In this document: one piece after another, positions 4,624 to 49,155 of the stretch
Layout: every line of letters begins with the position of its first letter
How positions within the stretch are numbered: the first letter of the stretch is position 1
Assembly (NCBI GenBank): GCA_040954595.2
Contig: CM082585.2
Span: 3,254,902-3,318,901 of the forward strand
Direction: 5' to 3'
Length of the DNA: 64,000 bases
Source of the DNA: Balanoglossus misakiensis
Lineage: Eukaryota > Animalia > Hemichordata
Notes under the pieces: generated by a model
Seen by the model: only the letters and a program-made list of their open reading frames with translations
Database searches by the model: none
Told to the model about the DNA's origin: nothing
Position numbers and translations under genes: made by a program

Positions 4624-4674
<51 letters not shown>

Positions 4675-7600
4675 GTTACCAGTTAAGGGGTTTAAAGAAT
4701 TATATAAACAATTCATCAATTTAATGTACAATCATTCCGGATTCTTCAGATTCATAATTTAGCGCTAAAGACCTCATTTTTCAAAGTGGCCTATATCTAA
4801 AATTGCAGACGTTTCAACGTTTTCGGTTAGAGATTTTCTACATATTCACAAAAAGACCACGGGTATTGTTAACACTATTTAAAATCTCTTTACCGGTGAG
4901 TCTGGTGGCGTGTGTACTACGGATCGAAGGTACAAAACTTCGCTCGAAACCCAACGCGAGTTGGAGACCGATTTTATTTACGCACAACATTGTAGCAATT
5001 TTTCGTATGTTTGCGCGCGCTCTGAAATCACACGATGTCAACTGAGTGTGAACTAGTTGTTTCGCGTCGTGTCGTCTGCCCAGTTTTCGTGGCTAAAACG
5101 ACAGGAATAATACCCCAGCTGGCTTTATAATTGCACATATCGTGAGATTTGAGCGCCATAGAAACCGCAGATATCGTGGAACAGGAAGGTTAGTGTTAAA
5201 ATCATTGTTTTTAATCGAAGTATTAATTTGACCTCTGAGTTTTGCTACGTTTGTGTCGGTGTCAAACGGCCGCAATGTTTACACGGCAGCCAAATAGAAT
5301 CGGGGAAATGAAGAAATGTTATCACGATACTTCGGATTTCGTGTTATTATTTCTTGGGAATTTTATCGTTTTCTCAGACGAGGTGACAGGACAGACACAC
5401 GAGGCATCTCGCGGTTCCGTTTTCAATGTTGAATTTTATGTTTTGAGTGCATTTGCGTGTCAGCTGACAGGTCTTTGCATTCATCAGAAGCTATCGTGCG
5501 TCGCTGAGATTTGATTCTTCACAAACGAAAATTATGTCATAATCATACCAAATAAAACATTTCCAGAAATTTAGAAGTTTGCGGACTTTTCTGCTAGTTG
5601 TCTATTTAGTGTTGAAGTCATGCTGAACTGCCAAATTTAACGCAGACTCGCCGTCAACACTCGAACAGTGTACTTCTTCTACGAGTGTGTCCTGTAACTG
5701 CCTTCCTTCGATAACCATACAACAACAAATAGACGGTAAACGTTTATGCAATACCAATGGATTTATGTTTTAAAACTGGTCGACAGTCAGGAAATATGCA
5801 TAAACAATCGATTGATTGTTTTTCCCAGCCAAACTATCGTATCTTGTGATTTTTTTTGTAGTGAAACTGTGGATATCGGCAGGCTGCATTGCAAGTTATT
5901 CTGCACATGCGCAGTTCCTCTGTCTTGAAAGAAAAGTCAAATTTCACCAACTTATTAATGTGCATTCGGAAAAAAAATCCCAAATGTTTTTTTGGTGACC
6001 AAAAATACTGCCAGTGTGATTTTGTGTTCAAATCCAACCTATTATTATTTAAATTGACTTGTGATACCCTCTCTCAGCACATAAAGCATAATTTCAGCCC
6101 CAAAATGGTTGCCATAGAAACATGTGATCACTAAACGGATACCATTTTTGTTCTTTTTGAGCCAATATACCCCTATGGTGAAATTTTTGTGGAAATCGGA
6201 CCTATTATTATTAAAATTATTATTTTTATATAATTCTTTATTTAATTATTTAATAATTACCAGTTAAGGGGTTTAAAGAATTACATAAGCAATTTATCAA
6301 TTTAATAAGCACGGGTGGATTTTCTGTACAATCATTCCTGATTCTTCAGATTCATAATTTAGCGCTAAAGACATCATTTTTCAAAGTGGCCTATATCTAA
6401 AATTGCAGACGTTTCAACGCTTTCGGTTAGAGATTTTCTACATATTCACGAAAAGCCACGGGTATTGTTAACACTATTTAAAATCTCTTTACCCGGTGAG
6501 TGTGGTGGCGTGTGTACTACAGATCGAAGGTACAAAACTTCGCTCGAAACCCAACGCGAGTTGGAGACCGAGTTTATTTACGTACAACATTGTAGCAATT
6601 TTGCGCGCGCTCTGAAATCACACGATGTCAACTGAGTGTGAACGAGCTGTTTCGCGTCGTGTCGTCTGCCCAGTTTTCGTGGCTAAAACGACAGGAATAA
6701 TACCCCAGTTGGCTTTATAATTGCACATATCGTGAGATTTGAGCGCCATAGAAACCGCAGATATCGTGGAACAGGAAGGTTAGTGTTAAAATCATTGTTT
6801 TTAATCGAAGTATTAATTTGACCTCTGAGTTTTGCTACGTTTGTGTCGGTGTCAAACGGCCGCAATGTTTACACGGCAGCCAAATAGAATCGGGGAAATG
6901 AAGAAATGTTATCACGATACTTCGGATTTCGTGTTATTATTTCTTGGGAATTTTATCGTTTTCTCAGACGAGGTGACAGGACAGACACACGAGGCATCTC
7001 GCGGTTCCGTTTTCAATGTTGAATTTTACGTTTTGAGTGCATTTGCGTGTCAGCTGACAGGTCTTTGCATTCATCAGAAGCTATCGTGCGTCGCTGAGAT
7101 TTGATTCTTCATGAACGAAAATTATTTCAAGTAAAACATTTCCTAGAAATTTATAAGTTTGCAGACTTTTCTGCTAGTTGTCTATTTAGTGTTGAAGTCA
7201 TGCTGAACTGCCAAATTTAACACAGACTCGCCGTCAACACTCGAACAGTGTACTTCTTCTACGAGTGGGTCCTGTAACTGCCTTCCTTCGGTAACCATAC
7301 AACAACAAATAGACGGTAAACGTGTATGCAATACCAATGGATTTATGTTTTAAAACTGGCCGACAGTCAGGAAATATGCATGAACAATTGATTGATTGGA
7401 TTTCCCAGCGATACTATTGTATCTTGTGATTTTTTTGTAGTGAAACTGTGGAAATCGGCAGGCTGCATTGCCAGTTGTTCTGCACATGCGCAGTTCCTCT
7501 GTCTTGAAAGAAAAATCAAATTTCACCAACTTATAAATGTGCATTCGGAAAATAAACACCAAATGTTTTCTTTGTGACCAAAAATACTGCCAGTGTGATT

Positions 7601-10600
7601 TCGTGTTCAAATCCAACCTATTATTGCATATGTAGTACAGTATTCCAAGCGGCCCGTGCAATAATAATTCTGGTATTTTTGCGAGCTCATATGCAAATGA
7701 GCAACTAACATAAAATAAGATCCCCAATTTCCTACACAATCGATCTTATCTCTTAAAGTTTATCACCATGTGTTTCATAATCATTTGTAGTTTGTATATA
7801 CCTCCATAGAATTTGCGAAAGGTTTTATTTTACATCCCAAAAAGCTTATTGTTGTTTTAGTTGTGCGCGCGACAATGTGGTATTTTTTACAGCTGATATG
7901 CAAATTAGTAAAAACAAAGACGACCTGTGTCGGAACTATTTTTTTGTTTGTAAATATTGTCGTCTGCTGCTGTGACGAAACCTTTCTATTCCATGGATGA
8001 ACAGTATTACGACTGGACAAACTGCATATATGTTGAAAGTTTAGGGACCGAATTCTATTATCCAGACGAGACAAGTGAAACAAGCCATGATTTATCAGCC
8101 TCGGCAAGTACGGTGGAGAAAAATATGAATATTTCTAGCCCAGGGTCGTCCCTGTCGACAACATCCAGCGCGAGCGCAAGACCGAGATTCGTCGATTTTA
8201 CATCGGAGGACGTAAATACTTTCGTAGGAGACCACAAAAACAAAAACACCGTGTTGAAAACGAAAAGAGAAGTTGCGGTATTTGAAGAATGGAAGGCGAC
8301 CATGACAACAGAAAGTCGGGGTTTGATGGAAATACCGCCTTCTGACCTCGATCCCCTTCTTGCACGGTTTTTTATCGGCGTTCGGAAAAAGAACGGGGAA
8401 GAGTATGAGCCGGACTCGATTTCCAGCTACCAAAAATCTATCGACAGGTGGCTGCGTGATAACAACTACGGCAAGAGCATAATTCGGGACGAAGAGTTCG
8501 CATCAAGTCGTCGTGCCTTAGCAGCAAAACGTAAACAACTGAAAGGCGCCGGGAAGGGCAACTTGCCAAACAAGGCAGAGCCGGTGTCCGCGGAACAGGA
8601 GACGGCGCTACTGAAAGCAGGTCAGCTCGGTGTTCATTCGGCGGTCGCGTTGTTGAATACTATCTGGCTCAACAACACTAAGCTTTTCGGTCTTCGCGGC
8701 AACGATGAACATCATCAAATGGAATGGGGAGACGTGACTTTGCAGGAAGATGAGAACGGCGAATATATCGTGTATAATGAAAGACTCACAAAAACCCGGC
8801 GAGGTGAACCAGGCAATACGCGAAGTTTCGCTCCGAAAGCCTATGCCACCCCTTCCTCTCCTGAAACATGTCCTGTCAGCGTGTACAAGAACTTTGCTTC
8901 GCGACGACCCCAGAAAATGAATACCACTTCCGCACCTTTCTATCTTGGAATCGAGTACGTTCCCTGCACTGTTAACAACGGCATATGGTTTAGAAATCAA
9001 CGAATGGGCATAAATAAACTCCGATCCCTGATGAAAACGATGTCGAAAGCAGCGGGACTGACCGGAAAGTTAAGTAACCACAGCGCTAGAAAGGCCTGTG
9101 TTCAACGCCTCCTCGACGCTGGAGTCCCACCAAATACAACAGCACAACTGAGTGGTCATAAGAATGTATCAAGCCTAAATAGATACGCAGTGGCCAACCA
9201 ATTCCAACAGCGACAGATGAGCGAGATCCTGAGCGGCGCAAAGAAAAGTTTCGATCCGCGACCGTCTTCAAGTGCCACCGATGTTGACAAAACCACCGCC
9301 GACAAGACGTCAACCGATACCAATAATATTGTATCGAGTCAATCTAATGTTTCCGTCCTTACAAACAACGTGAGTGCTTTAAATAACACCCCTCAAGTGC
9401 ACGGTATGTTTGCCAATGCTCAGATTTTTGGCGGAACTTTCAATTTTAGCTTTAATGTCAACAAGTCACCCATCCCTAAACGTCGACGTATTATTTTCCC
9501 TGACTCCGATGACTCAGATTGAACGCAGCTGTAGTTTCGCTCATTTCGGCGAAATGTAATGCCCATTTGATAAGTTTGGAATGTTCGTTTATTACTTGTT
9601 GTTATTTATTGTTCAGTTTAGCTTCGCATTAAATTGTTTATCAAACTTTATTTACATGTATTCGTGTTGTGTTTGACTCGACGATGAATGAAAGTGTGTG
9701 ACCCTGTTATAAATTTGCATATCAATAGCGCTGATGGATTTTAACCAATGAAACGTGACCAAGTAACTTGGGGCAGATCACAAGTGTTTCGCCTATAGTA
9801 TTAATCCGCTGCTATTAACCAGGCCGAGAATTTCGCTAAATTGTGGAACATATGCAATAATAACAGAACGGCACGCCCCCTTGCGGCACTTTGAGGGATA
9901 CGTATGTTATTTTCACTCGTGAGCCGGTGTATCCTGCTGTATTTTCACTCGCTACGCTCGCGAAAATACGGCCGCAGGATACACCGGCTCACTCATGAAA
10001 ATAACATACGTATCCCTCAAAGTGCCGCAAGGGGGCGTGCCGTTCTGTCATATTATTATTTAAATTGAGTTGTGATACCCTCTCTTAGCACAAAAAGCAT
10101 AATTTCAGCCCCAAAATGGTTGCCATAGAAACATGTGATCACTAAATGGATATCATTTTTGTTCTTTTTGAGCCAAAATACCCCTATGGTGAAATTTTTG
10201 TGGAAATCGGACTTATTATTATTAAAATTATTATTTTTATATAATTCTTTATTTAATTATTATTATTACAAGATACCCCTATGGTGAAATCTTTGTGGAA
10301 ATCGAACATATTATTATTTAAATTATTATTTTTATATAATTCTTTATTTAATTATTATTATTATTACCAGTTAAGGGGTTTAAAGAATTCTATAAACAAT
10401 TTATCAATTTAAAGTACCATCATTCCTGATTCTTCAGATTCATAATTTAGCGCTAAAGACATCATTTTTCAAAGTAGCCTATATCTAAAATTGCAGACGT
10501 TTCAACACTTTCGGTTGGAGATTTTCTACATATTCACAAAAAGACCACGGGTATTGTTAACACTATTTCAAACCTTGTTACCCGGTGACTCTGGTGGCGT

Positions 10601-13600
10601 GTGTACGACCATTTTCAACAACCACGAAAGTCGATCTGTCAAATTTTGGTCAGTTCCATAGGCATCGCCATGCAATTTGCAGTGCGGGGCTGGAAAATTC
10701 AAGTGTTGTAGGTTTTAGGATTTGCCACAGAGAGTAAGGCACTTAATGACAGCTTTTTTAAAAGATCAGCTCGCTGGATTTTTTTCGTGTTGGAGACACT
10801 GCTAATTGTAATTTCTGTTTCCGACCCGTAATTTTCCAGACGCTTGACAACGTAGTCAGGCTTTTTGAATACTTAATGAGTGATAATAGACACACCCACT
10901 TTGCGCGCTCAGTCTGAAGACTGTATACAATGGACTAATGTTTTAAAACTGGTCGACATTAAGGAAGTATGCATGAACAATCGACTGATTGGATTCCCCA
11001 GCGATACTATTTTATCTTGTGATTTTTTACTTGTCCAAGAATTTATGGACGATAGCGTCGGCATTGACGATGTGGATACAAACCAACAAGCCGCTGCTAA
11101 CTTAAACCGAACATCCTCCCTTGATTTATTGGGCTTGTTTTTCAGAAATTTACCTATACCTGTATTTAGTATCAGCAGCGGCCGTCAGCAAGAACGTCCC
11201 GGTGCGCATACAAGGCATACCACTTTGAAACTATTTTACACAAGACAGTTGCGGCAAAATCCATGTGAATTGGTTTATTGATTGAGAAAAAATACAAGCT
11301 TTCGCTTGGTAAAACTATCACTACCTAAATCGACAAATATTCTGCAACTTCTACGAAAATATGCCCTGCGAGACGTACTTCGGCTTACATGTCCGCAATT
11401 TTGAATTAATGAGTTGTTCGCCGTCGTCACCTCCGTCTTACGCCTTCCATTGTTAACAAAACGTTCGCGAAAAAAATGACAAAAGATCGTTCGACATGAA
11501 AACGTTACCGAACTCTTTGTGCGTCGAACGCACCCCTGGTTCTGCACATGCGCAGTTCCTATATCTTGAAAGAAAAGTCAAATTTCACCAACTAGTAAAT
11601 GTGCATTCGGAAAATAAAGTCCAAATGTATTATTTGTGACCAAAAATACTGCCAGTGTGATTTTTTTGTTCAAATCCAACCTATTATTATTATTTAAATA
11701 GACTTAGATACCCTCTCTTAGCAGAATTGTCATTGCAATGGACTGTTTTTATGATTTAGGAAAATGTACAATTTAAGCCCCCAAACGAGTAACATCAAAA
11801 TGTGTGTTATCAAAACAAACATCATATTTATTTGTCTTTGCCCTTAGGTACACATTTGGCGGAATTTTGGAGTGATCTCACTACTTATTAATGGAATTTT
11901 GTACATTTTGTGATCACAAAACGGATATCATTTTTGTTCTTTATGAGCCAGGCTACCCCTATGGTGAAATTTTTGTGGAAATCGGACCTATTATTATTAA
12001 AATTATTATTTTTTTATAATTCTTTTTTTAATAATTTAATTATTATTATGTTAATATCCGTTCAATAAATATACTGTAAAATTATATCATTATCTTAAAG
12101 TTCAAAATGACAAAGTCGCTGTTTGACCGATTTTGTGATATCAGGAATACATGGAATACTTGTCACTGTCTCTTACTGTGCAATATAGTGTCAGTGCATA
12201 ACCTAAGAGTCAGAACCTACCCTTGTATGAAAAGTAGACTTGGATGTGATATCTAGATGAAATTAAGTTCCTGTATCAAAGTCTGTCTCCATTGACAAAT
12301 AAACATTGCCACAGCAGTGTACTACATGTAAATGACTGGAATAATCCACACTCTGAGATCTCATTACAAGCCTCATGTGGTCTTAAAACACTATGCAACA
12401 GTGGCTAAGCAGTCAAGTACATGGACAAAATTTGATTCAACAGTGAATAACTTGTGGTAGACACCATACATCGTTGCACTGAACATTCGATCTTGTCTGT
12501 CTACAAGCAGAGAAGAGATTGGGTAGATTTTACCAGTACTTCCGCATGATTCAAGTAGTAAACAAAAGGAACACTTTTCGTATCAAACACAATTCATGGG
12601 AAAAAATAAAAAAGACAGACTTTGTCCCTTTAAGTCGAAGCTTTAAGTTTATCATTTCATAAAGGTATACTTGCATTCCATCAAAGGTGTTATAGTGAGG
12701 GTCTCCAATGCCACTACACTTTTTAGCCCGCGCATCACGGTCGTGTGTTCGGATCTGTTGAGGCAAGACACATGTGTAAATAAATTCAGAGATGGAGAGC
12801 AAAGACAGTATTTGTTGTTCCAAAATAAAAAGAAAGGGACGCATAGACCATCAAATGTTATTGTGTTGTAGAAACAATTGGTTCAAAGCGCTTCACAAAA
12901 AAATTTGAAAACTAGCTAATTTATTCCAGACGAACATTCTAGACTGTATAATTAAAATCATTATAATAAGTCTAAAAATTCAATGTTCCCTAGTTGCAAC
13001 ACAGCTCAACGCACCAGTATCGTGTCGGGAATTCGGTAACCGTTCCAGAGATCAGAATGCGGTGTTTCTATCTGCTTGAATTCCAGAGTAAGATCGCCTG
13101 GGCCATCGCTAAAGAAGTCCCTTCTTGCTTTCACTCGTATAGGATATGGGCCAAGTGGCCTATCTGGCGTCATGAAGGTCCCGCACTGATCTTGGACAAC
13201 GGCGTCGACGTACTTCCCATATATACCAGATCGTTCGGTGATGGTGACCGGGATCTGTACCGAACAGTTCGGTGTACACAGGAACGGCACGGTGGGTTCC
13301 AAATCAATAGACACAGAGTCAAGATTCTCAAAGACATTTATGACTGGGGGTCTGCCGCGAACCTATCAATGCGAAAGTATAATAATGGCAAAAATGGAAT
13401 AAGATCCCGTAAATGCCACATATTCCTTATATAATGCCAACAATGATACCAATTGTTAAGTGTTGTTCCTGTACCCGAACATTCACCTGTTAGGGGTTTA
13501 ACTTTAAATAATGTATTCTACCTACCCATTCATCCATTAGTATATCTATGTGTGCATGCATGCTAGATATGTCTGCCTGTCCATCCATCAAGCTAACTGT

Positions 13601-16072: not shown

Positions 16073-19000
16073 CGTCGTCGTCAAGCTGCGTGAACACATT
16101 TCACTGGTATGGCTTCGGCTGGTCTTTATTAACAGTTAGCCTTGTTGTGTTGAATGTTGTTATGGCGACGTAGTTGATACAATCTTGACACGATTGATTG
16201 GAGTTTTATCAGCTGACATTACGTCCATCACGAGCTACTATTAGCGAAACTGACGTTTGATTGTGTCAGACTTCAATTCCAGAGCAAATAGACATTTCTT
16301 TATTGTTAAGTTCACTTCCTTGAAGAAAATTCGTTTTGATGACAGCGCTTGCATTCATGTTTGCGTTTAACAATTGAAAATACCATAAGGCTTGATAAGA
16401 GTATTGTAGGCGTGGTTTGTTCTCAGTTTTTGCAACTGTGTGTGAATTTTGTTCTTTCTAATGTTTTCAGTACAAATCGAAAAAAAACAAAGTAGCCGGC
16501 AGCAACGTTTTTAATCAATCGAACTTGTCATTATGTAAAGAAAACGTTGTTGGTGTTTTTGATGTCAATTTTGTGTGTGACCTCATTTGACAAAAAAACC
16601 TACAGTGCATGTACTGGAATTATCGCATCCACTTTGGATTAATATTTCCCGATAAACTTTGATCGTTGCGCTCCCAGATTTCGCGATTCTTGCGTGTGTA
16701 TGTTTACATGACAACGCCTGCAAACTGGTTGATGAGAACTGTGGCTTTGTACAATAGTTGTTTTTATGACACAAATATCAATCAATTTTCTATGTTTTTC
16801 TTTACCGGGCATTTCTTTCGGGTCACGACGATAAGCGGATTGTGCGCAAGATATCAAGACACTATTTGACAGTTCGTGTAGACCCACTCATGAACAATGC
16901 CCTACAGTCTGCCTCACAACTTTTTGCTCCTTTCGATGTCATTTTTTCCAGGCGTTAAACTGCGAACACTGTAATTTATTGGTACTGTACATGTACAACA
17001 GTGAATAAAACAACGTCTACGATTTTCTACTGCACTGGAAAATATTTCAATGGAAACAAAAAATCGTGCCATTTTTCAACTACGCACATACAATAGCCTT
17101 CAGTTACTTCCGCCATGGTGTACCCAGCCAACGCATTAGCCGTACATAACCAAATCGACATTTCAAGATTGATATGACAAGTATGATGAATTTGGACGCA
17201 GAAAACGGAAAAGTCACTACAGTTTGCTGTGGTCATTAATTTGTTATCGTAAATGCCAATGTTTAATCCAAAATTTTGTCATGCTGTTTCTTTTAAACTC
17301 TTATGAAATCAAAACATTAAATTTATGCGCAACCCGCGTCCAGGAGTCACAAATGAACCACGGTCTCTTTTACAAGAAACACAACACTTGTCTTGCTGTT
17401 GAATTCCAGAATATATGTCGTGAAGGGATAATTATGTGCGGGTATACTTGCAGCGATTTTTCTGATATACACTTTCTATGTATAAAGATAACTTAAATTC
17501 CTTGCTCACACAATGATCACGCGCTTGTGACAACTATATCTACAGTGAATTGAGTTTCTGTCACTTAAAAGTGGCCGCGCACTGCCGGGTTTGTGATACA
17601 CATTATTGAAATTTCAGCCTACTGACCTTGATGACATAAATTTTATAAGTCTATATTATTGGCCGAAATCAATCAACACCTTACACGTATCGTAACATTG
17701 CAGTCGAACATGTCTATTATTAAGTTGATAGCTTTACCCCTGTCACCACAATGGTTTTGTCCAGATCGAAAATTTCCTATGGAGATCACTGTTTTCGCAA
17801 CACTGCTAATTTATTTTTTCTCCATACAGTTAACACAGCGCAATTGCACTTTGAGTCAAAGTTTTGTACAGTGACCCCAAATTTTAAAAGTGCCGTGAGC
17901 AAAATATGAGAGAAAACTGTCAGATTTCGATTACATGTATTGTTGTATGTATTAGCGCAGACTTTGCAAATATCCATGGACATACTACACCCATGTACTA
18001 TGCACTATGCCCCGCCAACGCGTGTCAGATATACTGTCGCGGCACATTATCCAACCTAGCTTTGCGTACAGGTCTGTGTGTGTTCCCGGCGTTACACAGA
18101 CCTGTACGCAGAGCGATATCCAACCAAGCGAGATTGATAGCAAAGATCGTTCCAATCCTGGCAATGTTCAACGCAACCTCCTTCAACAAAATCATCCAGT
18201 TTCTATTTGACCCGACCAAAACCTAACGGTCAGGTAAAACGACGCCGATCCGTATAGCATCAAATGGCGACCCTATATATAGGGACCGTCGGATACTAGA
18301 TTATGACTGCTTCTATCAAAAGTCACGAAGAAAACATGTACTTCCAACAACACCGAAAGAATAACACACATCCACACTGAAATTCCCTTCCTTGTTCAAG
18401 CGATAGTGGCAATGATTTTGAATAAAGATGACCACTGCTAGGAAAGTCTTAATGTCAGGATTTGTGTGGCCAAATCTCATTTGCAGTTGTCTCAATACAG
18501 TTGACAGGATACTTTACACTTCGAGCTCTACACGTGATAGCCAATGAACTCGTTTTGTCGATTAGGCGTTATAAAAAAAGCCCGCGAGTTTCTTTTCACT
18601 TTACGCTTATCACACGACCTGAACAATAGACTCTACTTAAGAGAGTTGTGGGTAATAATCCACTGCGATCCAAGTCTCTCTGATTGGCTGACATGGTCTT
18701 CCCGTAAGTGTTAATTTTAAGGCTTGGTGCTGTGTGTCCAACAATGAGGTGCCATAGCAATCCCAAGAGTCTGTGTCAATGACGATTGACACTGTTGTTC
18801 CAGAATTCAACGCTGCAGTGAACTATTTCTTCAGTTCAGAAATTCAAATATTTGAGCAAATAGAAAAAAAAGTATTGTTGTACTATTATTGCGAGGCCTC
18901 ATTAGGCCCGGGTTCTATTAAATGGGTCGTAATTGTTTTGGCACGTTTTCGCAGGATAATTTCCATTGTTTTCGTCGACCGACTTCGCAGTTTGTTAATA

Positions 19001-19463: not shown

Positions 19464-19603
19464 GCATAATCCCCGCCTCAGACGGGTATAAACGGGATTT
19501 GGGTACAATTCGAGGAATGTATCACGAGTATATAGAGGAAATTGTACCCAAATCGAGTGTTTACCCGACTGAGGCGGGGGTTATTGCTTTATATTACATC
19601 AAC
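19464..19603 (-). mobile_element. Relic terminal hairpin of a Crypton-like element (element 4)
   Basis: Imperfect palindrome 19464-19587 with CGAG (CTCG on minus) in unpaired segments, followed by TTTAT... as in element 3. The partner end was not found. Confidence 0.6.
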
Positions 19604-24165: not shown

Positions 24166-27100
24166 TTATATATAATTCCCCCGTATTTCGAACGAGCGTG
24201 TCTGCGTCGCGGACGAGTGATTCCCCGTATAGCGGCCGTATCCCTCCGAGCCGCAGGCGAGGAGGGATACAGCTATACGGGGAATCACGAGTTCGCGACG
24301 CAGACACACGAGTGAGGAATGCGGGGGAATTATACTTTTTATCACATACATAGACCAAGTTTCCATGAAATTGAGTTTCATTGTGAATTGAAAACATTTC
24401 AGCAAAAGAAAGATAGCACTATTTTATAATAATAATAATAATAATGCTTTATTGCTCTTTTAGGCCTCCAGCCCATATTGCAAACTTATATTTATACACA
24501 CAGAATTTTACAGAGAGTACAAAAAGAGAAAAGAGATAAAAATTACAAACATTCTTTTCTCAAACTGATTGCTTTGTGAACAAATAAGGCCAGATTTCGT
24601 ATTTCTTTGTTATTTTCTGAAGCCATGAGTGAGTAATATTTTTCGAGTGTTGGAATTGTATATGACCATCTCGGTAAATACATGCTTCTTAAAGTCTGGT
24701 ATAAAGGACAGATACAAATAAAGTGATATTCGTCCTCGATCTCAGTAGACCCACATACTCTGCAAATTCTATCTTCAAAGTCGATTCCCTGTGCCCTCCC
24801 CTCCTCAACTGCCAAATCAAAACCACAAGTTCTAAGACGAGCGAGGGCACTCCTTAGTTTGAAAACAATATTCAATTTTAAGTAGTTCTCTGTATGAAAT
24901 GATGTTTTAAAGTTACAGTACAAACGAAGTTTACTCTTACTACAGGTGTCTGAGAAACAGTTTTGTTTGAAAATATCACTTGCTCTTGTCATAAAATTGA
25001 GAAGAAAAAGATCAAAATCCCCTGGGCCTTGCCATAGCCATACATCTCCAAAACCGTGTTCATGCAAAAGACATTTTACATTTGTTGCCCATGATTTTTT
25101 CCCATTTTTGTCCAGTGTCACCGATAATTTGTAGGCATGTTTGGCTACTCTGTTTGTGGGCATTTTTAATAACTTGAACCAGTATAAAATAACTTTCTTA
25201 AAAGTGTGAATAAATATTGGATGTCTTCCACAATCTCCTAGAATGCAAGCATCTGGTGTAGTTGATTTAACGCCCATAAAGGCTTTACAATATTTCAGTT
25301 GTACTCTTTCAGCAACTTGATATCTCTGATATCCCTATATTTCAGATCCATATGTTAAGACTGGCAATATCATGGAATCAAAAAGTTTAAAATAGTCTTT
25401 AAAAGATAAAGTGCCACTGTTTTTAATCATACGGAAAATAGCGCCCATAGCTTTTCTGGCTTGGTCTGAGAGTACGGTAACAGCTTTACTCCAGATGTTT
25501 CTACTTGAAATTATTAAACCTAAATATTTGTAGTAACTGACAGTTTTTAGTTGTTCTCTATTATAAAACCATTTTTCACATTTCTTTAAAACACCCCCTC
25601 TACGAAAAACAATTATTTGTGACTTTTCCATATTTACAGATAGTTTCCATTTATGACAGAAACATTCCAGTACTCTAGTCAGTCTTTGTAGCCCAACTGG
25701 CGTATCACTAAAAATTGTAACATCATCAGCATAAAGAAGTGCAAATAGGTCGTAAAGTTCTTGAGTGATTTGAATACCATGATTACCCGAATTTACTAAC
25801 ATATTATTTAATTCATTGATGAACAGAGAAAAAAGAAAAGGACTCAACATACACCCTTGTCGAACTCCGACAGAGCAATTAAAGAAATCGGTTACTCCAT
25901 TTCGACTCTTGACACAAGATTTAACTTCTTTATAAATGGATTTAAGAATATTATACATTTTGCCCATGACACCCTCTAGACAAAGTCTATATAACAAGAG
26001 ATTGTGATTTACTGAATCAAAAGCTTTACTGAAATCTACAAACAAACAATAGAAACGACCTTTTGATCTAGAAAGATATTTCTGTACCATAATGTGAAGA
26101 ACAAAGATATTATCAACAGCGCTAAAACCACGTCTGAAACCAGCTTGACATTCAGTGATACAACCTTGCATTTCAGCCCATTTTACAAGTCTCTGATTTA
26201 GTATAAAAGTAAAAATCTTGCCTCTGAAATTGTTTGGGTCATGTAAACTACCCTTCTTATGAAGTGGTACAATTATTCCCTTACTCCACTCGCTTGGAAA
26301 AACACCAGAGTCAAAAATGGCATTGAACGTGAAATCAAGTACCGTGATTAGACTTTGTTTTGCATTTCGATAAAATTCATTGGGGATACCATCCGGACCC
26401 GGGGATTTACCAGCTTTTAACTTATTCAGTGCACAGACGATTTCTTGAGTTGTAATATGACTATTTAGAATCTCTTCAGCACTATTTTAAAACGATCGAC
26501 AGATCATGTTATGCGGTCGGGGTCCTGTGTCGGGGTCACACGCAAACGGACATTAAACCACGATCAGCTGTTAGTAATAACGGGCCCCGAAGGTTAAGTT
26601 TATCGCGCTATTTCTGAGTGAAATCAGACGAAATATGAGACACCTGACGATATTTTTTGTAGGTAAATATGGTTGATAACACAGCAAATTCAGAAACTAC
26701 GTGAACGTTACTTGACAGCGCGGCCCATTGTTTACAACACCGGACATTTTATAAGGGTCGAACTCAACAACATTGACTTTTCGAATAGAAATTGCAAGCA
26801 GCATATCAATTTCATATTTGTGAAACACTTTAGCAATAAAATCATTGTTAAATATTTATATTGAAGACGTGTCGGTTTAAAATCTAAACGCAAACTTTTA
26901 TCCAAGATTAACAGAGAAATTGCTGCATGGATAAACATCATGTATCTGAAACATTGAAAACAACAATAGTTCGTGGTGAATCGACGTCAAATTTACTGAA
27001 AATGCTGGGAAATGACGAGAATAAATTGGCTTTTATCCTACTACGTTCATGTCCTGAGAAATGTCGTTGCTACTGCCTGAAATAAAACATGGTCATCGCT

Positions 27101-27441
27101 CGCCTGCTCGACTCGACCTGTTGACTGGCTGCAAGCTGCTGGGGTTGTGCTGCTCGATGCTCCAGCGATGTCGATCGTGACGTTTAACTTGCAATTTTAC
27201 ATGCTCATTTTACATTTAAAACATGTGCTTTATTACCCCATATTTCCCTGTGCTTCAAAAGTCTCCCTCTTTTGGGATTCGGGCATATTTCTGATCGAGA
27301 ACAGGTGATGTTTGTTTGTTTACATAACGAAAATAGTCCGGGCATCCATATTCAACACATGTGTAATAAGGATTCGTCGAGGTCATATACCTGTAGTGTG
27401 ACGTCACACTATAGGGTTAACTGGGTCTATGTATGTGATAA
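24166..27441 (-). mobile_element. Non-autonomous Crypton-like element (element 3), ~1.2 kb plus a nested LINE
   Basis: 19-bp inverted pair 27424-27442 / 24338-24356 abuts a 164-bp hairpin (24171-24334) with six unpaired CGAG (CTCG on minus). No YR ORF. No empty site is available, so the ends are approximate. Confidence 0.75.
24427..26477 (-). mobile_element. 5'-truncated RTEX-like non-LTR retrotransposon (RT plus C-terminal CCHC region)
   Basis: RT motifs QAGFR, FVDFSKAFDSV, GVRQGCMLSP, LLYADD, YKYLG. C-terminus RICRVC...EDEYHFICICPLY. (TTA)n tail. 12-bp TSD AGCACTATTTTA (24415-24426 and 26478-26489). In-frame stop at 25335. Confidence 0.9.
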
Positions 27442-28065
27442 AGAGCTGTATTCCTCCAGTTCTTGCGGATTGATATGATTTATGTCATTTGTTTACATTC
27501 TGTTGCACGTGAGTTATAGACGCGCTCGAACTCGCACAGCTGAGCGCGAGCGATATGTTATTTCTTTTCCTCGCAACGATCGACGCCGACAGTCACACAT
27601 TCATGCATTAATCAGATCAAATCATCACCATCTGCGTCATGAAATGCTAAATTCCTGGGGCCACCTGTAACTTACTTGCGTAACTCATTATTATGGCCAT
27701 ATCTAATTTGACAAACCCAAAGGGCGGGGATTTTCCGTTGTCTTGAATATGAACCAAATAAGAATCCTAATTTTTGGCCCAATTTTGGGTACCCTCAGCT
27801 GACCTTTGATGTACTTACTGAAGTACTTACAACGTAGAAGTTCACCTTTGGTTGCTGTGTTTGTACTTGTAGGACATGCATTTCGGGTGGTTGCCTACTT
27901 CCCCATATCTCAACATCGAGAGCAAATACAGCCTGCGCATTTGAATGGTACAACCCTGAATGGAGTCTTATGGTTATTCACTCTATGCTTGGGCCCCTTC
28001 AACGCTGCTTGCAGCTTTAATTTAAGTGTTGAAAGTTATAGATCATATTGTAAACAAGTCCTTAA

Positions 28066-37594: not shown

Positions 37595-38385
37595 TATTAT
37601 CGCTGGTTTCTTAAGGTTGTTCATGCATCGGGGAATCTGCAGCGATGAGGTAACGGGCTCTGACGAGAACAGTGATCCACGGAGACACGTATCTGATTCA
37701 CGTTCATTTATTGTCGAGGATTACTCTAGTACATCAAATACGCCCAATAAAGTACGCGAGGAAGGGAACGGACCCAGTAGCCTGAGGTACTCCCATCTCC
37801 CGTTAGATTATTCTCTTCTTCTTTGGAAACAAAGTTCTCTTATAAGTACTTTTCTCAAGGCGTGGTTAATCATGTAAAATATCACAAATACAATGTGTTA
37901 CAATTTCATTGGGCATCAATTCAACTCTATATGTACCAATTTACATAAAGCGTAATATAACAAAGTCAGTTCGATGACGATTGACAACCAGAGCAATCAG
38001 TTAAACACCAGCTCTCCCTATCTACTTCAAATACATAAAATCAAATACTATCAAATATTGACATTCCCGACACTCTAAAATATCCTTCGGATTGGCTGTC
38101 GGTCATTGACGTAAATCAAAGAAAGACAAAAGTAATTAAAGAAGAAATTATCTCTGTCAAGATCACGACCAAACCAAGGTGATCAAATACAAGGACTAGC
38201 AACCATCATATACAAACACCTCCTCCCACGTATTTTAATAAAGATGTAATTAAACTCATTCGTTGATTGATATTCCCAGGTCTCAATATTAAAGGCATTT
38301 GACCTCTATACACGGAATTACTCATCTTACGCTCTAGATTAGTTGACCCTTAAAATCATATTTGACTTTTATACAGATCGTAACA
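37595..38385 (-). repeat. 3' LTR
   Basis: Direct repeat of 44715-45505; preceded on the minus strand by the PPT. Confidence 0.97.
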
Positions 38386-39476
38386 CTCCCCTCGTTTTAA
38401 AACAATGCGTCCCGCATTGGACACAAATCCCTTAACTAAAAAGATAATACATATAAAAATACAATTTGATAAATCGGTGATCTCTTAAAGAGCAGCACAC
38501 CAAGGGTAGTTTTTCAGTTCCACCCCAAGAATATATTGATGTTCCGTATGATTTTGAAATGTTAGTGTACAATATATACATATAACAAAAGTGAAGTAAA
38601 ATAATTGAAAAAATCAAGTCATGCCTATGAAGTGATCGTCCTAAAAATTATGAAATTACAATACAAAAATTACTACAGAATAAAAGTACATATACAACTT
38701 GATGTAAACTTAAAATAGAATGTGCTCATAAAACCTTCGCACACATATCCACCTACTAATATAAACAATAAAATCGCAACTCCTATAAACCCATAAAACG
38801 TTGTATCCATCATTCAACACAATCTTAATATCTGTTGTCTTATTGACTCAAGAAACACTCTTGCATTCTTTTACATCGAATGATCCGCCGACGTTTCTTA
38901 TTCTCGTCGTTACGTCATATCTGGCAAATTCAATAACGTTAAAAAAGTTAAACTAAAACATTTAAGCGTTTTGTCAAAAATCCACTTTTTACAACTTCGA
39001 AAATGGCATTTTCTTCATTCGAAAATAGGATTTTCTTTGGTTTCTTTGTACATGTACAAACACATAGCCATAAAAAAGAGGCTATTTACACAAACTGGAC
39101 CATTTATTCAGGTCATCAAACGAACGGAAAATTCAACTCACAACTTTTTTCTCTAGTATAAAAATCTCTGTAACTTCAAACTTCATTAGTAATTTCTTTA
39201 TAACTTAAATACATCAATACATGTTAACCAAGCGACACGGGAACCAGGTTGCATAGCACATACAACTAAACTCAGCAAACAAAGGATAATAAAACGTCAT
39301 TCGATAACTTACGCATCATTTAAACGAATCAAGGGACATGCCAATCGTACACTCACTCATACAGGCCGGCCAACACTCATACCTCTCAGTCGTGCTCAAA
39401 TTTTCAATTCACACAACCACGTGTCTCCTTCTTCCGTTTTTTTCTCTGTTACGCTCTTATTTTTCTGTCCGTAGAT

Positions 39477-42400
39477 TTAAATGTGCAAATGTGCTATAAC
39501 CTGTTTCTCTTGGATCTTTACAGGATTTCTCATCAAATACTCTTTTGCAGTTTCATTCAAATTGTCTTCATCCTCCCACGTATTATGTTTGTTTGAATAA
39601 TTCTTCCACTTAACCAAATACTGTAATTTCCCATTTCTATATCGACCCTTTAACACATTTTCTATTTCGTAAAATGGCTCAGAAGCATTATTCTGACAAT
39701 TCCCATTGTTGTCAGTTTCATCGATAGCACTGGGACTTGTCCTTGACGACAAATCTCTCAATCCCAATCCGTCAATTTGATCAGAACCATTTTCTGATTC
39801 TGCATATATTTCTGCTTCTGGACTTTGACATATTTCGGTCCCATTTTCATAATTTGTGGTTTCTGGGACATCGTTTTCTTCACACGACTCATCAGATGAG
39901 GATGAGTCAAACTCAGAGGGGCGCAAATAAGCTCTTTTTAGTCTATTCTCATGTATGACTTTACGATAATTTCTGGTGCTATTTATGAAACGCAACTTAT
40001 AATTAACAGGACTCACCTTTTCAGAAATAATGTAAGGACCTGTCCACTTATGTACGAATTTCTTATTAACTCCTGGTTTAACAGCTGGTGTGTATAAATA
40101 TACAGGATCCCCCACTTTAAGATGTTGTGACCGTTGGATATTTTGATCATAACGGTCCTTCATATTCTGTTGATATCGATCTATATTCTCTTTGGCGATT
40201 TTATGAGCTATCTCCCTTTTAGCAGCTAAATGTTTAAGGTGTGTATCTATATTTCTTGTCCTCCCCTCAACTGGCTGGAATTCAACATCCATGGGCAATG
40301 TGGGATGCCGACCGTATAACAGATAATACGGGCTGAACCCACTGGACTCTTGAGGGCTAACTCTATAAGCGAAAAGCACTGAACTTAGGTACCGATCCCA
40401 ATCTTTCTGTTTACTATCGACAAACATGGACAGCATGTCGACTAGGCAACCGTTGAAACGCTCTGTAAGGCCATTGGTCTGTGGACGATAAGGGGTGGAA
40501 ACTTTCCTCTGAATGTTGAAATATTTGCAAGTTTCACGAACTACTTGGGATAAAAAATTCGATCCCTGATCACTCATCAAAACTCTGGGGCTTCCATAAG
40601 TAGCAATTACTTCATCAAACAAAATCTTAGCAACTGTCTCAGCTCGTGCATTACGTAATGGATATGCTAGTGGGAATTTAGTAAAGTAATCAGTAAGTAC
40701 TAAGATGTATTTATGACCATCATAAGTTCTAGGGAGGGGTCCCACAATATCCATACCCAGTCGGTCCCAGGGTCCTGATACTGGAATAGGTAACAACTTA
40801 GCACGAGTAGTGGGTGTGGCTCTCTTTCGTGTGTGACAATGTGCGCATGTCTTTACGTACATATTAACATCCCGGGGCATCCTTTCCCAAAAATACCTCT
40901 GTCTTAAAACTCCCAACGTTTTAGTGTATCCCAAATGTCCCGCTAAAACACAATCATGAGCCCACCGCAGAACATAATTTCTTAAGGACTTAGGTATCAC
41001 AACCTGTCTAACACAATCTAATTTACCAGCTGATTTCCCCGTGGGTTTCCAAAAATGATACAAAACCCCGTCAACAATGTCGTAATTTGGAGCCATACTA
41101 ACAAATTTACGAGCTAACTTTTGATCAGTAGGTAGCTCATCATTCTCTAAATAATTCAGAAATTTACTCAAATAATTATCTTTTCTCTGTTCTCCCTTCA
41201 TTCGTGATTGTACCTCACTGTCGAATGTGTTATCCACTTCAGTGTTGGAAGCATTTTCCTCCACGTCAGTGTTAGAAGTATCGTTAGAACTGTTAATTAA
41301 AGTCCCATACCCAGGTGTGTCCTCATTATTTGCAGAATTATGAACCTCGGGTTCGGTTTGTTGCCCTGCATGTACATTATTTATACAAGGTGAGTTTATG
41401 GGCTCAGTGTTTACACACTTATCTACCATTGGAAACTGACTGTTAGGCTTGTAATTTATCTCAGGCGCATGCTCTAAATCAGTGACGTCAGACTTGTACC
41501 CCTCACATTGTTGATATGGTCTCCTTGACAACCCGTCAGCATTCATGTGTTTCTTACCAGGTCTATAGATAATTTCGTAATCGTACTGCTGCATGGTCAT
41601 TATCCAACGGCCAATACGCCCCCTCGGTATTTTCTGTTTAAACATGTAAGTCAGATTGGAGTGATCAGTCACTATAGTAACACGGTTGCTACGTACATAG
41701 TGATCACATTGTCGAATAGCATGAATGACGGCCAAAGCTTCCAATTCTGTAATTGAGTAATTTCTTTCGTGACAGTTTAAACTTCGACCCCCATATAAAA
41801 TTACTCGTTCAACACCATTCTGTCGTTGAGCTAAAACAAACCCCAGGGCATGAGTGGAACTATCGGTATAAATTATAAAATTTTCATTCATATCAGGATA
41901 CCCTAGAATTGGTGCATGACACAGAACATGTTTTAATTTCTCGAATGCTTGTTCGCATCGATCATCCCATTCAAATTTCGTGTCCTTTCCCAACAATTTA
42001 TGCAGAGGCCTTGCAATGATCGAGAAATTCTTTATAAACTTTCTATAATAATTGGCCAACCCCAAAAATGATTTCAACTGTGTGACAGTATGAGGACGGG
42101 GATATTCTTTAACAGCTGTTACTTTACTCTCGTCAGCCGCAATTCCATCCTTACTGATAATATGACCCAAAAATTTAACACTCTTTCTCATAAATTGACA
42201 TTTGCTGGGCTTTAATTTCAATCCAGCTTGACGTAACCTGGTTAGGACAGTATCAATGTGTTGTAGATGCTCCTCAAAAGAGCTGCTAAATATAATAATA
42301 TCATCGATATAACATAACACATATTGCCACATAATATTGCGTAACACGTGTTGCATAGTACGCTGAAAACAACTGGGACTATTTCGCAACCCCTGGGCAA

Positions 42401-44637: not shown

Positions 44638-44703
44638 AGTGCAATCTCTCCGCTGGACGTCGCCGTTTCTGTCTCCGATGGATTTGTTTCGTCTACCCTC
44701 GTT

Positions 44704-44712
44704 TCTCCACCA
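44704..44712 (-). promoter_or_regulatory. Primer binding site, probably tRNA-Ala
   Basis: TGGTGGAGA lies 2 nt inside the 5' LTR boundary and is complementary to a tRNA 3' end ...UCUCCACCA. Confidence 0.7.
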
Positions 44713-44714
44713 TG

Positions 44715-45505: not shown

Positions 45506-46998
45506 CTGCATTGCTGTCAAATTTGACAAGACCCGTGAACCAATTAGAGAGTTTGTGTATGCTTATCTTTGACATAGGCAGAGTTGAACCTTTTTGATCA
45601 AACGTGACAATATTTTCAGCAAACGTTCTCCACAGATATATGCAGGCACAATGTTCGCTTATACATCACGTCATCAAAGCGTGCTCACATGCTTCTTTTC
45701 ATTGTATTTCAAATTTATTATTAACATTTTAAAGGTCGGTGTCCCCTATTAAAAGTTTTCAAGGTGGTCAGAGAGTGGTTACCTATTGGAGGAATGTTAG
45801 TTTAACATAACTATTTATAAACGTCTGGCCTGGAATTCCTACCTTGGGTCAAACTACGGTTCCTGGCATGTCTCTTTAGGCCAAACTATATAAGTATTAA
45901 GCATTCTTATCTCAAGTGGCAAAATAATAAATTTAAATCAGAGCAGCCACGTATTATTCAGGTGTGATGGACTTGACAGTGGTACTTTACCCAATTTGCC
46001 AACTTGCTTGGTGAAAATTTACCACCATCACCCACGCTTTGACAAGGTTGACCTCTGTCCAATTTATTCAAGTTGGAAAATCGTTGCATGTGTAGGCCTA
46101 CGTTTGTACATGTAAATGTATTTCTTAACACGCGTTATATCTCATTCTTATCTTCTGATCGGTGGCAGAGTGAGATATAATTCTCATAGGGGTGTGTTTA
46201 GTATACTAGAGTATAGTGCAGTGACCTGATTTCAATATTATAAACAGTGCACATTGTGAACCCGCCCAAACTTTGGGAATAATCGACAGCCTTTAAACAG
46301 GAACTAAGCGCAAATATTGAACACGGTAAAACTAACCTACGAGATCGTACAGAGAAATCTCTTATACACAGTGGAGGGACCATGACTTTTATCATATGCT
46401 CATGCTGATATCACCTCCTCCAAGTGACGTTTAACGTGAATATCACCACGTTTAGTGAGAAATATCACCGGCGATATTTAACACTAAACGTCATCATTTC
46501 TTGCGCTTATACCCGGAACTATGTTCATGAAAATGGCGACCTTAGATGTAAACAAACATAACCCTATACAGGGCCCGGTTTCATGAGATTTGACATACCG
46601 GTAGTCAACATCGATATGCATGGAGTTCTGATGGCCACGGACATGTGTTATAAATAAAGGATTTATCTTGGTGATTGATTTGGAAAACAAACGATTATTA
46701 GTTACACACGTAGAAAAAATATGACAACGTCACGTCAACACTGTGCGTCACGCGCGCGAGTAGTTGTCCAGGTGACCGGTCTGTTTACGGTCGTTTACCA
46801 AATAAAGATAACCCGAATATTTTCACAATTATACCTTCTTCAGACTTTTTTTTGTAGTTTTCAGTAAAATAAACGACTACATTTTTTATGGTTACGTTTT
46901 AAAAACAATTCACCACTAAAATGAAAATCCGGTCAATAAAAAGTGGATGCCTATCGAACGTACGGCAAAATTTACTCACTTCCTAAATAGACATTGCA

Positions 46999-48423
46999 AT
47001 GGAAGCATTCAATGACCCAGAGATACAGGAAATTTTCCAACTTGCTGAGTTATTGTGTCAAGATGACACTGATACTGCTGTACCCGAACCAAATCAGCAA
47101 CAACAGCAAAATCAAAATCGGTATGTGGAATTTAATGATGGCGATTTGGACGACTTTGTGGACCAGCAAAAAAAGAAGAATACCGTAAGGAGTACGAACA
47201 CGGCAGTGAAGCAGTTTCAAGAATGGATGTCGAGTATGCGCCCAACAGAAACTCGTCGTATTGTTGATATGCCACCCCAAGATCTGGATAGCCACCTTGC
47301 TGCGTATTTTGTTGGAGCCAGGCAGAAAAATGGTGAGCAGTATGAACCCGATACTTTGACAAGCTATCAGCGGGGAATCGAGCGTTATCTTCAGGACAAC
47401 GGTTACCCGGTCTCGATCATCCGTGGCAATGAGTTCCAGCGCTCCCGAAAATGCCTCTCAGCAAAAAGAGTTGAACTAAAAAAACAGGGACGGGGAAATA
47501 AGCCACAAGCTGCCGAAGTGATTACAGATGAAGAAGAACAACTTTTAATTGAACGAGGATTTGTCGGTCGATCGACTCCCGAAGCGTTGTTCAACGCAGT
47601 TTGGATGAACAACACCAAGATGTTGGGCTTTCGCGGTGGCCAAGAAAACCGGGAATTGAAATGGGGGGATATCAAGCTCAAAAATACGGCCGACCACAAA
47701 GAATATCTCGAATTCAACGAAAGGGAGACTAAGACCAGATTTGGACAAGCTGGTGCAAAACCACGACCCTTCAACCCCAAAATCTTCGCAACTCCCGAGA
47801 AGCCAGACACATGTCCCATAGCCACATACAAGGAGTTCGCTAATCGTCGCCCCGTTGAAATGAATACCCCAGACAGCCCCTTCTACTTGGCAATCAATTA
47901 TTCGCCCTCATCAACCATATGGTTTAAGAAATCTCCAATGGGAAAGAATAAGTTGGCAACAGTCGTCCAGAGTATGAGCGAGAAAGCGGGCATCAGAGGG
48001 AAAAAAACCAATCACAGCATGAGAAAAACAGCCATCACGAAATTGCTGCACGCAGGCATTCCACCGACCCAAGTACAACAGTTATCGGGCCACAGTCAGC
48101 TGCAGTCGGTCAACAACTACGCCACCGCCTCGCTCAGGCAGCAGGAGGAGATGTCAAACATCCTCGCTCCATGTTCATCCAAACAAGTCGAAAATCGGGC
48201 AATTTCTGGTTCCGTCAGTTCAAACACGTGTCAGATGGAAGCGGCGACAACGGGCGGTATATTTAGCGACGCAGTGATATATGGCGGCTCGTTTAATATC
48301 TATGTTTCAAATGCGACGTCAACGGGATCATCATCTATGACACAGCCCCCACCACCGTACAAACGCCGCCGCCGTGCAGTCATTTATGACTCTCCGTCCT
48401 CATCAGAAAATTCCCAGGAATGA
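46999..48423 (+). CDS. Tyrosine recombinase, DUF3504/Crypton type, 474 aa
   Basis: RQKNGEQYEPDT; LGFRGG (R), TKTR (K), NHSMRK (HxxR), SGHSQ (H), NNYA (Y). Clearly homologous to, but diverged from, the ORF at 7993-9522. Confidence 0.92.
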   Translation: MEAFNDPEIQEIFQLAELLCQDDTDTAVPEPNQQQQQNQNRYVEFNDGDLDDFVDQQKKKNTVRSTNTAVKQFQEWMSSMRPTETRRIVDMPPQDLDSHLAAYFVGARQKNGEQYEPDTLTSYQRGIERYLQDNGYPVSIIRGNEFQRSRKCLSAKRVELKKQGRGNKPQAAEVITDEEEQLLIERGFVGRSTPEALFNAVWMNNTKMLGFRGGQENRELKWGDIKLKNTADHKEYLEFNERETKTRFGQAGAKPRPFNPKIFATPEKPDTCPIATYKEFANRRPVEMNTPDSPFYLAINYSPSSTIWFKKSPMGKNKLATVVQSMSEKAGIRGKKTNHSMRKTAITKLLHAGIPPTQVQQLSGHSQLQSVNNYATASLRQQEEMSNILAPCSSKQVENRAISGSVSSNTCQMEAATTGGIFSDAVIYGGSFNIYVSNATSTGSSSMTQPPPPYKRRRRAVIYDSPSSSENSQE

Positions 48424-48900
48424 TCAGACTTTGAGACTCTTTTTGAACTTTGAAATGAATGGCTTTATTAAATTATTTGCAATTTAACTGATGTCATACC
48501 GATTTTAAACATGTTAAATTCATGACGTTCACTTGTTGTTGCACCCCCAAAAAAATGTGTTCGATTCAATTTTCAAACGTTTTGTTGTTTTGCATGATAG
48601 AGAGCGGTTGACCTCCTTGAACAATTTACTATTTAAAGACATCTTTGACTTACCGATGTTGTCGTTTCCCACCGTTATTTAACATCTTTACAGTTATCCT
48701 CATATTTTTATATCACCGCTACGCTACACTTAAAAATGGCGCGTCATGTCAACATCATCAGTCATGAATGAAGCCGATTTACAATGTTAATAAAATATCA
48801 ATGCGCTAAGCGGAATAAAATAATTCATTAAAATTAAAGTGTTCTCGCTTTATTTTTTCATTTTTCTTGTAAATTCCGAAGTTTGAGCATATGATAAATC

Positions 48901-49046
48901 GGTTATCGCCCCATATCCCCTCTTGTTGGGCCATATTTGTGTGGGTTGTGAGCTGCATCACACTCGTCTTCGACTCGTGTGATGCTGCTCACAACCCACA
49001 CTCGCGGCAAATATGGCCCAACAAGAGGGGATATGGGGCGATAACC
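48901..49046 (+). repeat. Terminal hairpin of element 2
   Basis: 39-bp perfect outer stem, one-sided bulge CTCGCGG, T-T mismatch, apical CTCG-TCTTCGA-CTCG. Confidence 0.97.
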
Positions 49047-49155
49047 TCATAATATTAGTTTAAACGTTAAAAACTGCCGCAGGCAGTTCGGGTTGTTTGG
49101 CCCATTATGGAGTTGTTGAGTGTTCTTATCGTTTGTTCAAGAATGACGTCACCTA

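Follow-up and report, generated by a model that had tools for sequence, protein, structure and literature searches.

Mismatch-bearing hairpins at the outer ends of CryptonA transposons in Balanoglossus misakiensis as candidate recombination sites on one folded strand

Introduction

The genes ZMYM2/3/4, QRICH1 and KCTD1 arose from the CryptonA lineage of transposons. According to the accessible text of earlier descriptions, members of this lineage are 2-2.7 kb long, carry a single gene for a DUF3504 tyrosine recombinase without a C-terminal domain, have non-autonomous derivatives and insert without target duplication (PMC3212892; Glomhopper, PMC13465315); they have been reported in the acorn worm Saccoglossus (PMC3212892). 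The 2011 survey of Kojima and Jurka gives no terminal repeats for animal Cryptons and enters 'n.d.' in all CryptonA rows, and the strings 'hairpin', 'palindrom' and 'stem' do not occur in its main text (PMC3212892). A usual tyrosine-recombinase site consists of two inverted arms of 11-13 bp around 6-8 bp (PMC3212892). In the accessible portion of a 2026 review, the transposition of Cryptons is described as undemonstrated, with a double-stranded circle being assumed (PMC13565253).

Several other systems, as far as the available parts of the cited reports go, bear on the elements described here. The integron site attC is used by IntI as one folded strand, with a stem of variable sequence and extrahelical bases through which the two strands differ (PMC7439510). 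The strand-biased SE elements of Vibrio, which have four genes, encode tyrosine recombinases that circularise one specific strand, and no hairpin is described for them in that part of the report (PMC9345347). DIRS elements, also mobilised with a tyrosine recombinase, harbour what is called the internal complementary region (ICR), a stretch complementary to both ends (PMC7192593). DNA mini-hairpins of the type GCGNAGC / GCGNNAGC are used on single-stranded DNA in the phage G4 origin and the N4 promoters; GNA is the one triloop able to form such a hairpin in DNA; in RNA it is much weaker, and ordinary folding models fail to capture it (PMC13037366). Tandem GA-AG mismatches, finally, stack very strongly (PMC8163305).

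Here we analyse a stretch of 64,000 nucleotides from the hemichordate Balanoglossus misakiensis (GCA_040954595.2, contig CM082585.2, positions 3,254,902 to 3,318,901), hereafter the window. An initial annotation had seen in four of its hairpins a common CTCG tetranucleotide left unpaired within otherwise unrelated stems, and had suggested a structure- and strand-specific recognition signal. We find that the hairpin at 9863-10048 forms the right-hand end of a CryptonA transposon of ~2.4 kb whose tyrosine recombinase is intact.

Results

Three elements of the window end in a long hairpin

The elements E1 and E2 (Table 1) are nested in other repeats that have empty copies inside the window, and these empty copies were used to place their boundaries. 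E1 lies in a TAT tract with seven shared bases at both flanks; its exact ends slide inside the 7 bp of a TATTATT repeat, from 7619 to 7626 at the start and from 10050 to 10057 at the end, and a short target repeat is possible for this element. Copies of its host repeat are found at 4626-7625, 10051-10609 and 11539-12048, the length of the TAT tract differing between the empty copies. For E2, both empty sites show a clean junction without target duplication and map the ends to the base. The hairpin is the last feature of E1 and of E2.

Table 1. Coordinates of the elements, genes, hairpins and end copies in the window
Feature	Position	Strand	Basis or note
Element E1, CryptonA, ~2,432 bp	7621..10052	+	empty copies of host repeat at ~6040-6046 and 11685-11688
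Element E2, second CryptonA family, 2,663 bp	46389..49051	+	empty sites 30555/30556 and 35692/35693
Element E3, non-autonomous, without recombinase remnant	24166..27441	-	contig junctions at both ends
Tyrosine recombinase gene of E1, 509 aa, DUF3504 + Phage_integrase	7993..9522	+	Pfam, catalytic residues
Tyrosine recombinase gene of E2, 474 aa	46999..48423	+	Pfam matches DUF3504, Phage_integrase
Hairpin H1 of E1	9863..10048	-	folding; tandem GA:GA and tip on minus strand
Hairpin H2, decayed, three CGAG on plus (CTCG on minus)	19466..19584	+	folding
Hairpin H3 of E3, three CGAG x CGAG tandems, tip CC-GCA-GG	24171..24334	+	folding
Hairpin H4 of E2, GA:GA 48963 x 48974, tip TC-GAA-GA	48901..49046	-	folding
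L of E1, left end, 15 nt	7619..7633	+	exact inverted match to L'
L' of E1, 15 nt, directly at hairpin foot	9848..9862	+	inverted copy of left end
L' of E2, 15 nt	48884..48898	+	inverted copy of 46388-46402
L' of E3, 19 nt	24338..24356	+	exact inverted copy of left end 27424-27442

The ends of E3, in which tblastn detected no remnant of a recombinase, were read from sequencing contigs, all from one sample of one study that is possibly the window's own source. At the right end (24166), 9, 7 and 1 contigs diverge into other flanks; five contigs pass from 24165 to letters matching 27442 onward (29/30), and E3 is inserted without target duplication. The element is split by a LINE fragment (~24420-26490), whose reverse-transcriptase portion lies on the minus strand at 24543-26486. 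In the outer flanks of other E3 copies, both runs gave a consensus GTGA at 9 to 6 bases from the end 24166, with an agreement of only 0.5 in one sample; this GTGA resembles the far end of E3 itself with a displacement of two bases, and a target preference is one possible explanation.

In all three mapped elements (3/3) the right end lies 3-5 nt outside the hairpin, and the element ends read ..TCATA, ..TCATA and ..TATAA. The empty sites of E1-E3 show neither target duplication nor paired terminal repeats (in E1 with the seven shared flanking bases), as is the case for mobile CryptonA elements. The far end belonging to H2 was not found within the window. Rfam had no match inside the window, and a search of viral contigs returned seven pattern matches with no relative among them. 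Among the 15 of 84 contig joints listed there was no circle junction, a result without weight for or against a circle.

Other repeats and genes surround these elements. A young Ty3/gypsy LTR retrotransposon (37595-45507, minus strand) has 793-bp LTRs that are 99.4% identical and encodes gag-protease and a pol with a C-terminal chromodomain. A 451-bp MITE-like element (49571-50021) possesses 32-bp terminal inverted repeats and internal repeats of ~60 bp, and a 434-aa ORF at 58080-59384 matches the conflict-system glycosyltransferase domain GT4-conflict (PF20706, E 2e-31). At 18059-18114, in a deeply covered repeat, a short hairpin with 21-bp arms lacks both CTCG and CGAG and represents a different element type.

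E1 and E2 encode tyrosine recombinases of the CryptonA type

E1 and E2 have one long ORF each, and their Pfam matches are limited to the recombinase (PF12012 with E 4e-26 and 1e-22, plus PF00589) and to a QRICH1 domain; neither a reverse transcriptase nor an extra C-terminal domain was present among the ORFs and Pfam matches of the two elements. The two proteins are 43% identical over 424 columns, and the nearest proteins are KIAA1958-like sequences of the acorn worms Ptychodera and Glandiceps. The E1 recombinase keeps R235, K267, H363, R366, H389 and Y398, leaving the R-H-R-Y set intact. On these sequence grounds, we assign both proteins to the CryptonA recombinases as they are described in PMC3212892. 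H1 starts 341 bp 3' of the E1 ORF and H4 478 bp 3' of the E2 ORF.

A structure model of the E1 recombinase (pLDDT 91) was closest to Cre, XerA and QRICH1 in a fold search (Cre: Z 17.9, rmsd 5.5, 290 aligned). The integron integrase IntI4 was a remote match that scored below Cre (E 3e-4; Z 13.9, rmsd 4.4, 251 aligned), in a search that cannot separate single- from double-strand recombinases. A kinship with AAV ITRs and HUH Rep proteins was discarded, and with it the analogy to AAV Rep-binding repeats drawn by the initial annotation, as the only long ORF of each element encodes a DUF3504 tyrosine recombinase and not an HUH Rep.

CTCG mirrors G·A tandems and GNA loops on the complementary strand

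H1 is an inverted repeat with 78-nt arms that are 95% complementary, and it folds with about -102 kcal/mol on either strand (z = -25.6). All CTCG motifs previously listed in tips and internal loops were recovered in H1 (tip CTCG-CTACG-CTCG at 9948-9960; CTCG x CTCA at 9916 x 9992), in H3 (read on the minus strand, where the tip spans 24247-24261 and two more CTCG x CTCG lie at 24193 x 24309 and 24214 x 24288) and in H4 (tip CTCG-TCTTCGA-CTCG at 48963-48977; a 7-nt one-sided bulge at 49001-49007 that begins with CTCG), the fourth hairpin, H2, having three CTCG. The excess of this tetramer on one strand is beyond chance: the four hairpins (615 nt) contain 15 CTCG vs 0 CGAG on the chosen strand, H2 and H3 having first been oriented by the motif itself, the orientation of H3 being later fixed independently via its ends. 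Shuffled sequences had a mean of 4.0 CTCG and a maximum of 11, so that 15 was reached in 0 of 5000, and the best strand bias of any 4-mer over 2000 shuffles was also 11.

The tetranucleotide is, however, not unpaired as had been proposed. Where CTCG faces CTCG, the outer C and G pair together and the mismatch comprises only TC x TC; a fully unpaired CTCG is found only in the bulge of H4. The opposite strand of CTCG x CTCG is CGAG x CGAG, that is C-G, G·A, A·G and G-C, and the tips of that strand are C(GTA)G in H1, C(GAA)G in H4 and C(GCA)G in H3. On the minus strand of H1, one tandem GA:GA is formed at 9916-9919 x 9992-9995, with one closing pair being T·G here, and a second at 9948-9951 x 9957-9960, with the tip GC-GTA-GC. 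This tip is exactly the mini-hairpin GCGTAGC, and the other tips, C(GAA)G, C(GCA)G and C(GATA)G, are of the same kind; the mini-hairpins of G4 and N4 differ in serving as replication or transcription starts, not as transposon ends. The tip of H2 is without a clean GNA cap. On the minus strand, the sequence of the H4 bulge is CCGCGAG, which could close as a C(GNNA)G mini-loop branching off the stem. CTCG mirrors, on the complementary strand, stabilising G·A pairs and a GNA loop; what is conserved there is a tandem G·A/A·G mismatch together with a loop of the form C(GNA)G or C(GNNA)G. The idea of a strand-specific structural signal gains support, now at a transposon end, but the initial annotation had assigned the motif to the wrong strand and mistaken its nature.

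The stems are nearly unrelated, as the initial annotation had stated, with a best local match of 10 nt, except that H1 and H3 have in common a 3-nt bulge 8 bp below the tip; a fixed bulge at this place, true for these two, was rejected as a general feature. In most copies of E3 a compensatory pair change was observed at 24201/24304, and no change in any CGAG was common among the copies. Since computed energies barely separate the strands (ViennaRNA DNA energies: H1, -102.2 vs -102.6; H4, -79.3 vs -78.3, favouring the CTCG strand), our choice of the folding strand rests on published non-canonical pairing. The motif may be read by a protein or may simply aid folding; its distance from the element end varies from ~20 to 85 bp, which argues against a fixed protein contact.

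An internal inverted copy of the far end adjoins the hairpin

Each mapped element contains, beside its hairpin, an inverted copy (L') of its other end (L) (Table 1). The far end of E3 was located via this rule, by a 17-nt exact inverted match at 27426 that was extended to 19 nt, and was then confirmed by the contigs. When the ends are joined in the model, L pairs with L' and lengthens the hairpin, and in E1 and E2 the side that bears the end has an excess of 2 nt; E3 also gives this excess once the extra base 24335, which is missing from nearly all other copies, is discounted. Modelled in this way, the two ends of each mapped element can close up along a single strand, leaving two bases over. 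L' and the left hairpin arm are together complementary to both element ends. The joined duplex ends are without paired inverted arms, of which the folded single strand has two, the L/L' duplex and the hairpin foot. A classical double-stranded model in which L and L' are the two ends was rejected, as the empty sites put the hairpin inside the element.

Related loci carry the same tip and the same polarity

We collected 83 loci with related recombinases, consisting of the best 80 of 289 metagenome hits and 3/3 genome hits (42 families at 80% DNA identity). Among the 39 eligible loci, having enough downstream DNA or a hairpin, a hairpin was present 50-900 bp downstream in 22 and absent in 17. The first hairpins downstream of the gene in these 22 loci (17 families) contained 60 CTCG vs 12 CGAG on the gene strand, against an all-flank background of 492 vs 474; per locus, 16 favoured CTCG, 2 favoured CGAG and 4 were tied. 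An inverted end copy of at least 12 nt (12-24 nt) was found upstream in 7 of the 22 hairpin loci, six loci having <250 bp upstream; two of the seven copies are weak (L078, low-complexity; L081, with a direct-strand control of 14 nt).

One family of seven loci has its hairpin upstream of the gene. In four of these (L044, L046, L057 and L060) CGAG was on the gene strand, and downstream in L057 there is an inverted copy of 16 nt. The CGAG strand therefore bears the hairpin at its 5' end regardless of gene direction. Polarity follows the element end and not transcription, which argues against a role in RNA.

The tips were surveyed with a motif-blind pattern (stem, 2x2 mismatch, short stem, 3-4 nt loop). 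It returned 15 hits, 11 of them distinct, and in 8 of the 11, GA:GA and a GNA or GNNA loop shared one strand, the remainder being one GA:GA with GCC, one AA:GA with GCA and one unrelated tip. GA:GA with a complementary TNC loop occurred in 0 of the 11 distinct tips, and the loop was closed by C-G in all nine GA:GA tips. The same census gave 3/3 for the window; three shuffles had 0, 1 and 2 hits, none of the GA:GA + GNA type. In 38 hairpin clusters, unrelated hairpins included, GA:GA made up 18 of 44 2x2 loops, 13 of them exactly CGAG x CGAG and five with other paired flanks, e.g. TGAG x CGAA; because of these five, we regard GA:GA and not CTCG as the invariant. A broad census of 2x2 mismatches with five flanking pairs was noisy, and GA:GA came first of 35 classes (13/118).

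In L007 (2093-2262) and L042 (3742-3885) the interior of the hairpin is inverted relative to family members, inside perfect stems of 26 and 11 bp; the flip in L007 may be an assembly artefact, and that in L042 is more likely a real inversion, possibly by template switch. At L076 (1009-1200) a hairpin end lies directly against another family's left end in a head-to-tail arrangement, and at L060 (3630-3790) one element begins next to another hairpin's tip motif; both arrangements hint at insertion into Crypton ends. L081, L082 and L083 are CryptonA elements in contigs of bacterial MAGs, two with a full CTCG hairpin behind the gene, and are probably animal host DNA within bacterial bins.

Discussion

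With a probability of roughly 0.55, we interpret the hairpin as the outer end of a CryptonA transposon and as a likely recombination site on one folded strand, the CGAG strand. Our fuller proposal, held more tentatively and at a little less than even odds, is that the CryptonA recombinase excises and integrates one folded strand, which would be set by tandem G·A mismatches and a GNA cap, at a site built from both ends via an internal splint, as an animal counterpart of integron cassette recombination. The CGAG strand would become single-stranded, probably in replication, and its C(GNA)G tip would nucleate folding. The G·A tandems would keep the helix of this strand continuous, whereas the other strand would have TC x TC gaps and a TNC loop. 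Pairing of L' with the far end would then bring the two element ends together at the base of a single long helix, the end-bearing side being longer by two bases. The recombinase would bind the L/L' duplex and the hairpin foot as two arms, and one strand exchange would yield a single-stranded circle. After refolding, this circle would undergo one-strand recombination with an AT-rich double-stranded target, to be resolved by replication without target duplication. A tyrosine recombinase also acts on one folded strand in the integration of CTX phage.

The analogy to integron attC sites drawn in the initial annotation is apt, as a single folded strand, a variable stem and extrahelical bases that make the strands unequal recur here. 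The differences are that attC has single G and T bulges in place of G·A tandems and a GNA cap, and that in our case the enzyme is encoded inside the element, the host is eukaryotic and the folded-strand mechanism is one that we infer; the RYYYAAC box, in which attC crosses over between A and C, was absent from the ends of E1-E3. The Vibrio SE elements would share the circularisation of one specific strand and differ in being bacterial. Some of our own data would weigh against a folded-strand model, namely that the nearest fold is Cre, a double-strand recombinase, that a hairpin was lacking in 17 of 39 loci and an end copy recovered in 7 of 22, that H2 is uncapped, and that the hairpin interior is flipped in L007 and L042.

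The main rival, which we consider unlikely, is that the folded CGAG strand is a mere splint that closes a single-stranded circle, as does the DIRS ICR, after which the circle would become double-stranded and integrate by the usual route. The complementarity of L' and the left hairpin arm to both ends, which is that of the ICR (PMC7192593), and the Cre-like protein fit this explanation. The elements differ from DIRS in having no reverse transcriptase, gag, RNase H or long inverted terminal repeats, and in that their complementary stretch doubles as an arm of the terminal hairpin. The missing reverse transcriptase speaks against a splint, as do the joined double-stranded ends, which offer no inverted arms, and the insertion of E2 and E3 without shared overlap.

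We judge it improbable that the recombinase, or a protein of the host, recognises CTCG on the element strand as a sequence code, be it through open pyrimidines of the folded top strand or through direct repeats in double-stranded DNA. The strong bias for CTCG, the 13 of 18 GA:GA loops that keep the exact tetramer and the truly unpaired bulge of H4 would agree with such a code, but the flanking C and G change in pairs in 5 of 18 loops, motif number and spacing vary, and the GNA or GNNA loop on the other strand would be left unexplained. Least probable of all is that the hairpin acts in RNA, or that its mismatches merely protect a long palindrome from deletion, with transposition via a plain double-stranded circle: such a circle is the published model (PMC13565253), the hairpins of E1 and E2, 340-480 bp behind the stop codon, could be transcribed and some tips resemble UNCG loops on the gene strand, yet polarity follows the element end and not the gene, in RNA the GNA mini-hairpin has far lower stability than in DNA (PMC13037366), one mismatch class dominates where any mismatch would break a palindrome, and the fixed register of L', hairpin and end would go unexplained.

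Judged by their sequences, the elements themselves belong to CryptonA; what appears to be new is the design of their ends and the predicted single-strand route. They differ from described CryptonA elements in that one end is a hairpin of 120-190 nt and the other is repeated internally in inverted form, a design that was not found in the Crypton literature searched, with Repbase and Dfam entries and subscription journals lying outside that search. Two intact recombinase genes and ends mapped by empty sites, to the base in E2 and within a 7-bp repeat in E1, lead to a sharp prediction of the folding strand, of the place where the ends come together and of the bases that are critical, which could be tested using oligonucleotides and a single purified protein. 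The hairpin and L' together provide a rule for locating Crypton ends, so far hard for annotators. If the folded-strand reading is true, structure-directed single-strand recombination would extend from bacteria to animals, and these transposons would represent a compact, sequence-tolerant recombination system.
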